Shown: positions 32,899-49,840 of the stretch, piece after piece
How positions within the stretch are numbered: the stretch's first letter is position 1
How the letters are laid out: each line of letters starts with the position of its first letter
Source: a virus
Lineage: Duplodnaviria > Caudoviricetes
DNA: 64,000 nucleotides
IMG/VR virus record: IMGVR_UViG_3300034069_002177
Coordinates: 32,001-96,000 of that record
Direction: 5' to 3' (one strand)
The notes under the pieces: generated by a model
What the model was told of the DNA's origin: nothing
What the model saw: the letters and a program-made list of their open reading frames with translations, nothing else
Databases searched by the model: none
Translations under genes and position numbers: made by a program

Positions 32899-32971
32899 AG
32901 GGATGTAGCTCAATTGGTAGAGCAACGGTCTCCAAAACCGTATGTTGCAGGTTCAAGTCCTGTCATCCCTG
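32899..32971 (+). tRNA. tRNA-Trp(CCA)
   Basis: Cloverleaf, loop CTCCAAA. Confidence 0.93.
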
Positions 32972-33217
32972 CAAAGCCTTTCATCGGAGGAAACGTTGAT
33001 GATGAAGGGTCCGCGAGTAGAAATACTCATTGGAAACTACACAGTGGATAAAGAAAGGGGATAGGTTGCCAAACCTATCCCACCCCTTGTCGTAAAAATC
33101 ACGAACTCTTCGGAGGTCGGGAGGAACAACAAGGTGTGATGAGGGCGGCAATCAACATGCCGTCGTATAGCCTCACGGCTCAAAACGAAGGACTTGATTG
33201 TCGTTCTCATCAGTAAT

Positions 33218-33299
33218 GGTAGTTTAGTCAAGTGGTCAACGACACCGCGCTGTAAACGCGACGGCTAAGCCTTCGGGAGTTCGAATCTCTCAACTACCA
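33218..33299 (+). tRNA. tRNA-Tyr(GTA)
   Basis: Class II cloverleaf, loop CTGTAAA. Confidence 0.9.
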
Positions 33300-33395
33300 C
33301 ATCTTTGCTAGTCACTCCAGTGGTGAGAAACTAGTCGTAGCGAACACTCGCGTCAAGGTTCGAAGTAGGTAAGGTCGCTCCTTATCTGCGTGCAT

Positions 33396-33478
33396 GGCGC
33401 ATTGCCCGAGTGGTCAAAGGGATCTGACTGTAAATCAGCCGCAAATATGCTACGGGAGTTCGAATCTCTCATGCGCCA
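33396..33478 (+). tRNA. tRNA-Tyr(GTA)
   Basis: Class II cloverleaf, loop CTGTAAA. Confidence 0.92.
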
Positions 33479-33520
33479 CAGTTCATAACGAACTAGTAGT
33501 AAGCAACACAGTTTCACCAT

Positions 33521-33592
33521 GCCTTTATAGCTGAGATGGTTTAGCAATCGGCTCTTAACCGATGGACGCGGGTTCGAATCCCTCTGGGGGCA
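33521..33592 (+). tRNA. tRNA-Lys(CTT)
   Basis: Cloverleaf, loop CTCTTAA. Confidence 0.88.
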
Positions 33593-33718
33593 CATGTCGT
33601 TGTGGCGGGTAGCGCAAACCGAAGTACAAGGTAAGCGTCCAAAGCATGAAGGGTAACAGTCAAGCGCCGTGGCAAGGTGTGCTAGCAACCGTGAAGGTTG
33701 TAATGGCTTGACAAGCTT

Positions 33719-33792
33719 GGTTCTATAGCTCAGATGGTTAGAGCGCCGCCCTGTCACGGCGGAGGTCGCCGGTTCAAGTCCGGTTAGGATCG
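33719..33792 (+). tRNA. tRNA-Asp(GTC)
   Basis: Cloverleaf, loop CTGTCAC. Confidence 0.92.
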
Positions 33793-33889
33793 CGATGTAG
33801 CCGACAATATTCATCATCCTGCGAGACCTTTTATCGAAGGCGGTAGTGAGGCTTGAATGCGGACTTTCCTTCCGTACATCAAAGGATAT

Positions 33890-33962
33890 TCCTCTATAGC
33901 TCAATTGGCAGAGCATCTCACTGTTAATGAGACGGTTCGTGGTTCGAGTCCACGTGGGGGAG
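33890..33962 (+). tRNA. tRNA-Asn(GTT)
   Basis: Cloverleaf, loop CTGTTAA. Confidence 0.93.
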
Positions 33963-34065
33963 CAGTAATTCCGAGTCTGTGAGACTCGGGGTGAAACGAT
34001 GGTTAGGCTTTGGTATCGCTTCTCACAGGGGCGGTTGAAGGCTGTTCACATCCATAAAAAGAACA

Positions 34066-34135
34066 GGGGTAATAGCTCAACGGTTAGAGCGCTCATCCGA
34101 GTGATGAGAGAAGCTGTTCAAATCAGCGAATCCTA
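34066..34135 (+). ncRNA. atypical tRNA-like element (loop CCGAGTG, no U33, weak acceptor)
   Basis: D arm TAGCTCAACGGTTAGAGC, stem CTCAT/ATGAG, T arm GCTG-TTCAAAT-CAGC. Confidence 0.6.
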
Positions 34136-34308
34136 CAAAGCCTAAGATGGAAGGCGCTGCAAAGACTGTGCGGAGGTACCCCAAACAGAAACTAGCAATG
34201 TTGGAAGTTATGGCTTCGGGTTAGCATAAACCAGAATGCGGCGTGGGAGCGTGTATGGAACCGTGGTAGGTTCTACCCGATGTAAGAGGGAGGGAGAAAT
34301 CCTCACCC

Positions 34309-34380
34309 GACGAGATGGGCTAATTGGTCAGCCAGCGGACCTAATATCCGTGCATGGGAGTTCGAGCCTCCTTCTTGTCA
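34309..34380 (+). ncRNA. atypical tRNA-like element (loop CCTAATA)
   Basis: Fully paired acceptor GACGAGA/TCTTGTC, D stem GGCT/AGCC, T loop TTCGAGC; C33 and T37. Confidence 0.75.
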
Positions 34381-34386
34381 AAACAT

Positions 34387-34461
34387 GTCTGTGTAGCTCA
34401 GTCGGTTTAGAGTGCCACCCTGTCAAGGTGGAAGTCGCGGGTTCAAGTCCCGTCACAGTCG
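34387..34461 (+). tRNA. tRNA-Asp(GTC)
   Basis: Cloverleaf, loop CTGTCAA; one acceptor mismatch. Confidence 0.88.
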
Positions 34462-34471
34462 CAAGCAATTT

Positions 34472-34689
34472 GAAGGAGGTTAGCTTAGAAGTAGCAATCC
34501 TTTAAAGAGTGACGAGCGGCAATAAGCGTGATGGTGATAGCCGCACCCGATGCCTGAGTGAGAGTAAAGCTCAGGGGTTGCTAGAATAAGAACAAAGTCG
34601 AAATCCATCAGGAGTAGACGGAGTGAAGCGGGCGGTCCCTGCGTTCTGGATATACAAGGGTCAGAGTCTTTGGTGTAGTAACACACTTC
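34472..34689 (+). ncRNA. structured ncRNA containing a 23S rRNA H43/L11-site-like segment (possibly GOLLD-related)
   Basis: GGAGGTTAGCTTAGAAGTAGCAATCCTTTAAAGAGTG closely resembles the 23S rRNA 1055-1091 consensus; GAAG/CTTC closing pairing. Confidence 0.6.
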
Positions 34690-47691: not shown

Positions 47692-47757
47692 AACTTCTTG
47701 TAACACGACCGGGTTCAGCCCAGTCGTGTGATATAGCCAGACACCGATGGTGTTTAT

Positions 47758-47829
47758 GCCACTTTAGCTCAGGGGTAGAGCAAACGCTTCGTAAGCGTTA
47801 GGTCGTCAGTTCAAATCTGACAAGTGGCT
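47758..47829 (+). tRNA. tRNA-Thr(CGT)
   Basis: Loop TTCGTAA. Confidence 0.93.
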
Positions 47830-48089
47830 CGGAATCGGGAACAAGGTCTCTCGGTAACGGACAGGTACAAAACGAGAACCCAGTGCACATGGACTCGCAC
47901 AAAATCCTGTTACCGTTTCGGTGTCCGTCTTCTTACGTTTTCGGGCACCGAACATTCTTCGAGGTTCAGCACTCGACGTATTTCATCTCAGGATACGGTA
48001 CGATACCAAAGGCTGGTCGGAGGTACACCGAAGGTAATCTGTTAGTGCAGATGATCAACCATGCACAGCGCGGAGTGATTCGCGTTTGT

Positions 48090-48161
48090 GCCTCTTTAGC
48101 TCAGTGGTAGAGCACTTCCTTGGTAAGGAAGAGGTCGAGAGTTCAATTCTCTCAAGAGGCT
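48090..48161 (+). tRNA. tRNA-Thr(GGT)
   Basis: Loop TTGGTAA. Confidence 0.93.
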
Positions 48162-48197
48162 CGTAAAGACTGCTACGGTAGTTATTCACGAAAATAT

Positions 48198-48273
48198 GGG
48201 TTCTTAGCTCAGTTGGTAGAGCATCACGCTGGCAGCGTGAGGGTCAGGGGTTCGAATCCCCTAGGATCCACCA
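48198..48273 (+). tRNA. tRNA-Ala(GGC), CCA encoded
   Basis: G3:U70, loop CTGGCAG. Confidence 0.92.
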
Positions 48274-48302
48274 TATAGACACCTTGACGAAACGGACCAA
48301 AG

Positions 48303-48776
48303 TTGACCGAGCTAGTAATCGCTCCAATGAATGTCGAAGATATTCAGTCCGTTATCGACCATGTAACCAATGTATCCCTAGCTTCGTCGCATCTCGACCA
48401 CCCCAATATCGGTGCATGGCTTGAAGGTGAATACAATCCTGCTGATGTACTCGCAAAGCTTGATTCGAGCATCTGTCTCATTGTGAGAGATAACGAGCAC
48501 ATTGTCGGTACCGGATTCATCGATACGACAACTGGCTACATTTCGGGTGTCTATGTCTCCAATAAGGGACACGGTACTGGTCGTTTGATTGTCGATAGGT
48601 TGCTTGAAGAAGCAGCAGCAGAGGCTGGTACGAAACACTTCACTGCGAGTGTTCATCCTGACTCGAAAGCCATGCAGCACATTCTTTCAACGTCTGGTTT
48701 CACGGCAACGCATGTGGACCCTCACGTTGTTTACTATGTTGGTACCGACTTCATGATTTGGGAAAAGTCGGTATAG
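48303..48776 (+). CDS. GNAT-family acetyltransferase
   Basis: ISGVYVS..GHGTGRLIV acetyl-CoA loop; ..HIL..SGF motif. Confidence 0.8.
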   Translation: MTELVIAPMNVEDIQSVIDHVTNVSLASSHLDHPNIGAWLEGEYNPADVLAKLDSSICLIVRDNEHIVGTGFIDTTTGYISGVYVSNKGHGTGRLIVDRLLEEAAAEAGTKHFTASVHPDSKAMQHILSTSGFTATHVDPHVVYYVGTDFMIWEKSV

Positions 48777-48782
48777 CAACAC

Positions 48783-48854
48783 GCCTCGTTAGTTCAGCGG
48801 AAGAATGCCTCTTTCCTAAAGAGTTGGTCGCTGGTTCGAATCCAGTACGGGGCA
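48783..48854 (+). tRNA. tRNA-Arg(CCT)
   Basis: Loop TTCCTAA. Confidence 0.9.
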
Positions 48855-49209
48855 CTGGGAAAACACCAACAGATTCGATTAGTCATCGAGGAACTAAGTT
48901 GGTGAGGGTGGTCGTTCACCGTGAAAAGAACGATGTCTGGTGATGTAGACGAGGTACCTAGCCTGAATCACAAGCGGATGAGACGGTTAGCTGGTTGGTG
49001 GACGCTCGATAAGGGTGGTTTCCGTACTCGCTGATTTGTGGGGTATAGATTCCGAATACTGCGACCCATCGTGGAAGACAACAAGCGGCTTGACTGGTCG
49101 CCCAAGTGACAAGTGTGGTGGAAATCCACTAGTAATCAAGAGCGTGGTACAGGGATCATAACCCTGCCTCCGTGAAGGTTTTAAGCCGGAGCGGCTTGGT
49201 TGCGATTTA

Positions 49210-49283
49210 CGGAGTATGGGAAAATTTGGCAATCCGCGCCGTTCGGGACGGCGAGAATGAGGGTTCAAATCCCTCTACTCCGA
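49210..49283 (+). tRNA. tRNA-Pro(CGG)
   Basis: C1-G72, loop TTCGGGA. Confidence 0.9.
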
Positions 49284-49377
49284 CATGGGGCGAGTGAGTC
49301 CGCGAAACCTTGGTGTTGACAACACAAGTAGACGTGGGCGCGGTCGCGTGTTTTCTCGACACCCTGTATCGTCAAAT

Positions 49378-49634
49378 GCAGTAGGGTTGAGGAACAGAAA
49401 TGCGGGCAGCAATGTGCCGCTACCGTAGGTCGAGACTACGGCGCTCCACCAAACTTTTGACACAGATTGGTCAACCCCGGCGCTTTAGGGGCTGAGAACG
49501 GCTCACAGAGCCAGTGGTCGTGGGCGAAGCGTGAAGGCATCCTGGGTAAGTCCTTCCGGCAAGCTACCAACGCGAATTCTGAGGTTCATGTCTTGGAAGT
49601 GCTGGGGACGTGGGTTCGATTCCCACCGACTGCA
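49378..49634 (+). ncRNA. second swapped-acceptor double tRNA/tmRNA-like element with internal Ala-type CCA end
   Basis: GCAGTAG/CGACTGC outer stem; internal CGTAG-GTCGAGA-CTACG T arm plus GCGCTCC-A-CCA, then GGGGCTG; terminal GTGGG-TTCGATT-CCCAC. Confidence 0.65.
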
Positions 49635-49660
49635 CAACGTCAGCAATGCGCTGACCGTAT

Positions 49661-49734
49661 GGTGTTCGTAGCTCAATTGGCAGAGCGGCAGGTCGTGAAC
49701 CTGTTCGTTGCGGGTTCAAGTCCCGTCGTCCACC
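49661..49734 (+). tRNA. tRNA-His(GTG), atypical (C33, two acceptor mismatches)
   Basis: G-1:C73, loop TCGTGAA. Confidence 0.72.
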
Positions 49735-49766
49735 TGAAACGATACCCTTATCGTCAAAAGGAATAA

Positions 49767-49840
49767 CAGGATGTAGCGCAGTTTGGTAGCGCGCCAGTTC
49801 GGGGAACTGGAGGTCGCGGGTTCAAACCCCGCCATCCTGA
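49767..49840 (+). tRNA. tRNA-Pro(GGG), C33
   Basis: C1-G72, loop TCGGGGA. Confidence 0.82.

Follow-up and report, generated by a model that had tools for sequence, protein, structure and literature searches.

Dense arrays of tRNA genes occur on giant plasmids and in huge phages, and their purpose there is still argued. Here we describe an array near the largest known, which lies in a 64,000-nt stretch of viral-database DNA (hereafter the window) comprising bases 32001-96000 of the 202,737-bp IMG/VR record IMGVR_UViG_3300034069_002177, labelled 'provirus'. The array occupies positions 32899..49841 of the window on the plus strand (all coordinates refer to the window unless stated otherwise) and combines tRNA genes with a tmRNA (transfer-messenger RNA), a reduced RNase P RNA and a tmRNA-like small RNA. 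It is an array of a known kind, in an extreme and better-equipped variant, and has homologous islands on megaplasmids of cultured Curtobacterium. What is new is the size of the tRNA set, a family of reduced RNase P RNAs with strong covariation that is also present in a true phage, and the conserved tmRNA-like small RNA.

ARAGORN called 64 tRNA genes and one tmRNA between 32899 and 49841, all on the plus strand, and Rfam gave 64 tRNA matches above its gathering score, 63 of them in common with ARAGORN. The two calls not shared are a weak match at 34066-34135 (Rfam only) and Leu-CAG at 42587 (ARAGORN only). No tRNA gene was found by ARAGORN in the remaining window or elsewhere in the whole record. 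A tRNA array unit has been defined by at least 20 tRNA genes and at least 2 tRNA genes per kb (PMC4758250), and the present array, with 64 genes in 16.9 kb (3.8 per kb), qualifies in both number and density.

About 60 of the 64 calls are canonical; most score 45-76 bits, and the acceptor stem is paired at 7/7 positions in most genes. Doubt attaches to four calls, namely the Rfam-only match at 34066, His-ATG at 40172 (34.6 bits), the call at 45161, which has an anticodon loop of 6 nt, and the call at 34309-34380, which combines a Leu-TAA anticodon with a class-I body and C33. The initial annotation of the window, made from the letters alone, had counted 61 co-oriented tRNAs, which is a fair tally of the sound genes; the concern that many of the calls would prove to be pseudogenes is not supported, given that only these four are doubtful and some 60 are sound with intact acceptor stems. 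Its claim that all 20 amino acids are served also stands, with 40 standard anticodons found. The anticodon CAT is present in four genes, and the one at 41501 is an initiator-like Met. Odd anticodon loops may be worth attention: C33 replaces the near-universal U33 in Pro-GGG (49767-49841) as well as in the Leu-TAA call, and the loop of Val-GAC at 44164 is likewise unusual.

Near-identical genes with the same anticodon form only three pairs (Ala-TGC, 96%; Asp, 93%; Asn, 92%). A fourth pair described as near-identical in the initial annotation, Thr-GGT, is 83% identical, and most remaining same-anticodon pairs share 55-89% of their positions. Duplicates occur both in tandem and dispersed, no complete set is contained in either half of the island, and most duplicates are strongly diverged, which argues against the proposed origin of the island from two merged arrays; a merger accounts at best for part of its history.

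The best DNA matches of single island tRNAs were to circular plasmids of 0.45-0.6 Mb from Curtobacterium and Frondihabitans, and homologous islands were found on the circular 0.55-0.6-Mb Curtobacterium megaplasmids pCPAA3 (CP018784.1) and D40 (NZ_CP126274.1), which carry 35 and 34 tRNAs, respectively. Both share with the window array the Trp-Tyr-Asp start, a tmRNA after Thr-GGT together with its tag, a downstream RtcB gene (69% identical) and a C74 that is always encoded; the tmRNA of pCPAA3 has been mentioned before (PMC10832533). They differ from it in the smaller number of tRNAs (34-35), a G + C content of 66-67% (51% in the element described here), a larger share of encoded CCA ends and the lack of a detectable RNase P RNA. 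Gene order is only partly collinear with the window, and the proteins are only distantly related (DnaE, 31%). The D40 island includes an ATP-dependent RNA ligase in addition to RtcB. Among the actinobacterial matches of the window RtcB, named homologs with 66-74% identity are located on 0.4-0.8-Mb contigs of Arthrobacter, Curtobacterium and Leifsonia. Compared with tRNAs of Arthrobacter cavernae, most island tRNAs are only 55-88% identical, and the tRNA-Phe at 43058 reaches 99% identity to its chromosomal counterpart in that species. Based on the plasmid homologs, the actinobacterial RtcB and the tRNA-Phe match, the record probably represents a giant plasmid-like element whose hosts are actinobacteria of the Micrococcales type. 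A search of the 202 kb for two hallmark families of phages gave no match to either PF05065 (HK97-type capsid) or PF03237 (Terminase_6N), and 10 large open reading frames (ORFs) of the record were without a match in PHROG.

The second half of the island has collinear counterparts on two JGI metagenome contigs, L014 (231 kb) and L013 (59 kb). With all positions counted, the tRNA genes are conserved at 86% in L014 and 59% in L013, the RNase P RNA at 85% and 92%, and the spacers at 63% and 30%. The RNA genes, conserved well above the spacers, are under purifying selection, and an identity of 73-100% between orthologous tRNAs of close relatives indicates a fast turnover for tRNAs. These results bear on the possibility, considered in the initial annotation, that the region is a host chromosomal tRNA locus, and on the related one that it is a degenerating accumulation of tRNA gene duplicates without function. 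The label 'provirus' and the four defective-looking calls would fit such a locus, but all tRNAs of the record stand in one block, the nearest cultured counterparts are islands on circular plasmids, some 60 genes have good scores and intact acceptor stems, and RNA genes are conserved far above spacers. This explanation is largely refuted, and we regard it as highly improbable.

CCA is encoded in exactly three genes, as had been annotated: the initiator-like Met at 41501, Gly-GCC at 46482 and Ala-GGC at 48198. C74 is encoded in 62 of the 64 island tRNAs, and C is depleted at position 75. The scarcity of CCA noted in the initial annotation is not peculiar to the island: the related arrays and the chromosomal tRNA genes of a Micrococcales genome are alike in encoding C74 and mostly lacking CA. 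In the four related arrays, C74 is encoded in 123 of 125 tRNAs; the individual values are 34/34 on D40 (L011; six with CCA), 35/35 on pCPAA3 (L012; 16 with CCA), 24/25 on L013 (four with CCA) and 30/31 on L014 (five with CCA). Among 30 distinct tRNA sequences sampled from the chromosome of Arthrobacter cavernae (loci L175-L204), C74 is encoded in all 30 and CCA in nine. C74 without CA is a habit of the whole lineage, which we have not seen described before and which is carried further in this island, and it implies that the 3' ends are trimmed before CCA is added. A class-II nucleotidyltransferase is encoded at record bases 8389-10065, outside the window; it matches the Pfam family PolyA_pol and its RNA-binding domain, and in NCBIfam it is closest to 'multifunctional CCA addition/repair protein' (1.8e-51, under the equivalog cut-off). 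A CCA-adding-type enzyme is therefore present elsewhere on the replicon, where the initial annotation had suggested looking for one, and the scarcity of encoded CCA is explained by the lineage habit together with the element's own CCA enzyme.

The reduced RNase P RNA (42342..42584, plus strand, 243 nt) starts 16 nt past a tRNA-Arg and ends 2 nt ahead of a tRNA-Leu. It aligns end to end with the type A model RF00010 at 84.9 bits (E 9e-25), which is under the gathering score of 100 bits; the RNase P RNA reported in the initial annotation is real but reduced. P1-P5, P15, P16, the GGU motif of L15 and a long P6 pseudoknot are retained, and the Rfam alignment contains both universal P4 strands (CR-I and CR-V) with the bulged U and the closing P1/P2. 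In place of P18 there are 0 nt, the P17 stem is missing, and the specificity domain (P7-P14) is reduced from about 140 model positions to 86 nt with a few short helices. The RNA thus shares with type A the P4 strands, P1-P5, P15/P16 with the GGU loop and the topology of the P6 pseudoknot, and differs, apart from the lost or shortened parts, in its length (221-277 nt), the extension of P6 to 10 bp and the position of its gene within a tRNA operon on mobile elements. Archaeal type T provides a natural precedent for the loss of the specificity domain, and a natural bacterial-type RNase P RNA of this size with a reduced specificity domain would interest ribozyme researchers.

Orthologs are located at the same place in L014 (1585-1827, 243 nt) and L013 (54-330, 277 nt). 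A pattern scan of IMG/VR yielded two further reduced copies, both wedged between tRNAs: L206:2248-2468 (minus strand, 221 nt), on a 171-kb record with 38 tRNAs, and L207:3574-3863 (plus strand, 290 nt), on a 215-kb record with 40% G + C and 30 tRNAs. With a gap of 150-180 nt the scan gave only the present record in IMG/VR; L206 and L207 were obtained with gaps of 120-150 and 180-210 nt. The L206 copy shares the long P6 pseudoknot with the window RNA, and its record has terminase matches, which identify it as a true phage. In four of the five reduced RNase P RNAs the adjacent downstream tRNA lies within 6 nt, so close that RNase P cleavage at this site would set the 3' end of the ribozyme itself.

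Because RNAalifold alone mis-pairs this RNase P RNA, we drew its canonical structure manually before counting the pairs. The drawing comprised P1, P2, P4, P5, P15, P16, one helix of the specificity domain and the 10-bp P6-type pseudoknot. In an alignment of four sequences, 97.9% of the positions drawn as pairs were paired and 21 of the 49 pairs were compensatory, including seven of the 10 pairs of P6. None of 500 shuffles scored as high, and slid controls gave 1-2 compensatory pairs; covariation was also counted in a three-sequence version. The two Curtobacterium plasmids pCPAA3 and D40 gave no match to the RNase P RNA. Our literature searches found no paper on a plasmid- or phage-borne RNase P RNA, and the term RNase P has 0 occurrences in the texts of both the huge-phage study (PMC7162821) and the study of Mycobacterium avium plasmids (PMC12803027).

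The tmRNA (36525..36914, plus strand, 390 nt) was called by ARAGORN and matches Rfam RF00023 above threshold (127 bits). This tmRNA, already noted in the initial annotation, is full-length, with a tRNA-like domain and a tag frame that ends in ALAA. The tag, ANASRNDFALAA, is identical on pCPAA3 and near-identical on D40, and the tag of host-type tmRNA has the same ending but differs upstream. A tmRNA-derived, tRNA-Ala-like RNA of 165 nt (49287..49451, plus strand) was recognized between Pro-CGG and His from alignment, folds and compensatory pairs; it was missed by ARAGORN and not called by Rfam. It has a 5' end of the tmRNA type, an acceptor stem with G3:U70, a T-arm and an encoded CCA. Orthologs are present in L014 (8872-9037) and L013 (8621-8766), with lengths ranging from 146 to 166 nt, and 14 of 39 predicted pairs are compensatory among the three aligned sequences, which have no conserved tag frame. 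A second fragment of a tRNA-like domain (49514..49637, plus strand; weak match to Rfam RF00023, 27.8 bits, E 1e-9), also with G3:U70, is present in L013 and not in L014. No match to SmpB (PF01668), the partner protein proposed for a check, was found in the 202-kb record, and RnpA was not found there either.

The placement of the array at the extreme end of known arrays in the initial annotation is justified, with 64 calls compared to up to 67 tRNAs in huge phages (PMC7162821) and 56 in Xanthomonas phage XacN1 (PMC5852040). It has in common with these phages a large tRNA set distinct from that of the host, a tmRNA and a CCA-adding enzyme, but neither of the two capsid and terminase families searched was found in its record, and its relatives are plasmids. 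Array units of actinobacteria have been described from Mycobacterium chromosomes, phages and plasmids (PMC5966550) and from giant linear plasmids of M. avium (PMC12803027). They likewise form dense, co-oriented blocks of more than 20 tRNAs, are carried on large mobile replicons, contain tRNAs unlike the host set and have been discussed in the context of anti-defence; the window array is about twice as large (64 calls for 20 amino acids) and includes in addition a tmRNA, the reduced RNase P RNA and the tmRNA-like small RNA.

Downstream of the array, the gene content is suggestive of RNA repair. An RtcB RNA ligase (3'-phosphate/5'-OH type; 52147..53493, plus strand; Pfam RtcB, 2e-120) is encoded 2.3 kb downstream; its true start is likely near 52294 because its homologs have about 399 aa. 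It follows an HNH endonuclease gene (51693..52190, plus strand; Pfam HNH, 8e-14), and the two genes also stand after the array in L014 and L013 (RtcB 92% and 85% identical, HNH 80% and 68%, respectively). A search for relatives of RtcB in IMG/VR gave only unrelated huge-phage loci with few tRNAs. RtcB genes were also seen beside dense arrays, with 18-26 tRNAs in a stretch of a few kb, in the unrelated high-G + C contigs L044, L085/L157 and L154, which include metagenome-assembled genomes labelled WPS-2 and Limnocylindrales; the linkage of RtcB and arrays therefore recurs widely.

Seven promoter-like sites are present on the plus strand inside the 17-kb island, compared to three in the remaining 47 kb of the window. 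Each has a TTGACA-type -35 element, an 18-nt spacer and a TAnnGT -10 element; one lies at 35514..35543, and the other six (also plus strand) start at 37569, 39823, 41347, 41603, 43870 and 44529. Each is located 45-102 nt ahead of a tRNA, which suggests several polycistronic precursors.

We consider it reasonably probable that the array supplies the mobile element with a complete tRNA pool of its own, along with help in tRNA maturation and repair, and that it does so in response to both codon mismatch and tRNA-directed attack. The almost protein-free cluster of RNA operons would be transcribed into multi-tRNA precursors, probably from several housekeeping-type promoters. Their 5' ends would be cut by RNase P, with the host RnpA acting together with the host ribozyme, the reduced ribozyme of the element or both; the 3' ends would be trimmed and then completed with CCA, presumably by the element's own enzyme. 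The expected outcome is a tRNA set with full decoding coverage, mostly unlike host-type tRNAs, together with the tmRNA, whereas charging, SmpB for the tmRNA and the protein subunit of RNase P would presumably come from the host. Translation of the element's genes could then continue irrespective of how the host tRNA pool fares. Such independence would cover the codon mismatch of an element with 51% G + C in a probably high-G + C host as well as the depletion of host tRNAs by defence or toxin systems that cut tRNAs, and RtcB and the CCA addition/repair enzyme might mend tRNAs that have been cut. Phage tRNAs evade tRNA-targeting defences (PMC10264068, PMC11555353), and the tRNA arrays on mycobacterial giant plasmids have been discussed as putative anti-defence systems (PMC12803027).

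Several points weigh against this reading. The anticodon stem-loops are not specially diverged, with 76% identity to host-type tRNAs compared to 75% for the rest of the tRNA, so that nothing in them specifically indicates evasion of anticodon nucleases. Nor can the family be accounted for by codon mismatch alone, because relatives with 66-67% G + C in high-G + C hosts also keep arrays. The ribozyme is putative, being below the Rfam threshold and without most of its specificity domain, and the presumed host is assigned from similarity alone.

A purely compensatory role, in which the array would provide decoders for an AT-richer, U-ending codon usage in a high-G + C host and would have no part in conflict, starts from the codon usage of the element. 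Its G + C content at third codon positions (GC3) is 0.55, U-ending codons are favoured in the four-fold families, and its overall 51% G + C is set against 66-70% in the plasmid relatives and the putative host clades; such usage fits a high-G + C host poorly, so that a tRNA supply of its own makes sense, and the same has been argued for plasmid tRNAs in a study of pMP7017 (PMC10832533). The complete set, however, also duplicates the decoders of C- and G-ending codons with which any high-G + C host is amply supplied, and relatives with high G + C content keep arrays of 35 tRNAs. Moreover, same-anticodon duplicates are strongly diverged, many copies have strongly diverged from host-type tRNAs, and genes for RNA repair accompany the arrays. 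All this suggests more than codon compensation, and we judge compensation by itself to be unlikely.

The initial annotation had gone further and proposed that the element can replace the entire tRNA pool of its host. Anticodon coverage is indeed complete, but neither SmpB nor RnpA was found in the 202 kb, and replacement is possible as a capacity only, in terms of anticodon coverage. A stronger version is a takeover in which the element cripples the tRNA genes or tRNAs of the host, for instance with an adaptation-less type I-E mini-Cascade carrying tRNA-like guides or with another nuclease. Decoding in the cell would then depend on the divergent tRNAs of the element, processed by the element's RNase P ribozyme and CCA enzyme; if true, this would amount to an addiction to the element through the translation machinery. 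Apart from the complete tRNA set, this scenario is motivated by a cas operon about 26 kb downstream of the window, where a guide-like 20-nt spacer lies next to cas6e, flanked by one degenerate and one good type I-E repeat (L205:9760-9850; record bases ~121760-121850), and by the fact that the element's own tRNAs match this guide at no more than 14 of 23 positions. The guide, however, matches the tRNA-Glu of Arthrobacter cavernae at only 15 of 23 positions, and no target was found in 401 sampled Actinomycetota genomes with a pattern that allowed the three flipped positions. In addition, RnpA and SmpB are missing from the 202-kb part, and at least one tRNA of the island, the tRNA-Phe at 43058, shares 99% identity with its host-type counterpart. 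We consider such a takeover improbable.

For the favoured reading, namely an independent tRNA supply with maturation and repair functions, the cultured relatives on Curtobacterium megaplasmids make function testable at the bench. The array documents that such loci can carry parts for tRNA maturation and repair, including a reduced RNase P family, a CCA enzyme, RtcB and tmRNA-like RNAs, and it suggests that mobile elements tune tRNA processing besides tRNA supply.

Of the approximately three proteins that the initial annotation had placed in the 17 kb, two are conserved and a third, the ORF at 44274-44555, is possible; the ORF at 38512-38988 is spurious, as it overlaps and translates tRNA-His. 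The first conserved gene (47037..47399, plus strand) encodes an acidic protein of 120 aa that is 64-68% identical in L014 and L013. It had no match in Pfam or NCBIfam and only weak leads in Atlas, and it is not RnpA-like. The second gene (48303..48776, plus strand) encodes a GNAT acetyltransferase (Pfam Acetyltransf_1, 2e-5) that is 83% identical in L014 and 57% in L013; a role in tRNA metabolism, such as the acetylation of charged tRNA, is putative. Both genes are kept inside the otherwise RNA-only array in L014 and L013. An SRP-like match at 47390-47472 (29.8 bits) overlaps the end of an ORF and a tRNA and was dismissed. Between the array and the HNH-RtcB pair, the window contains a gene for a glycosylhydrolase-like protein with BNR/sortilin repeats (49954-51537); it is missing at this position in L013 and L014 and is probably a recent insertion.

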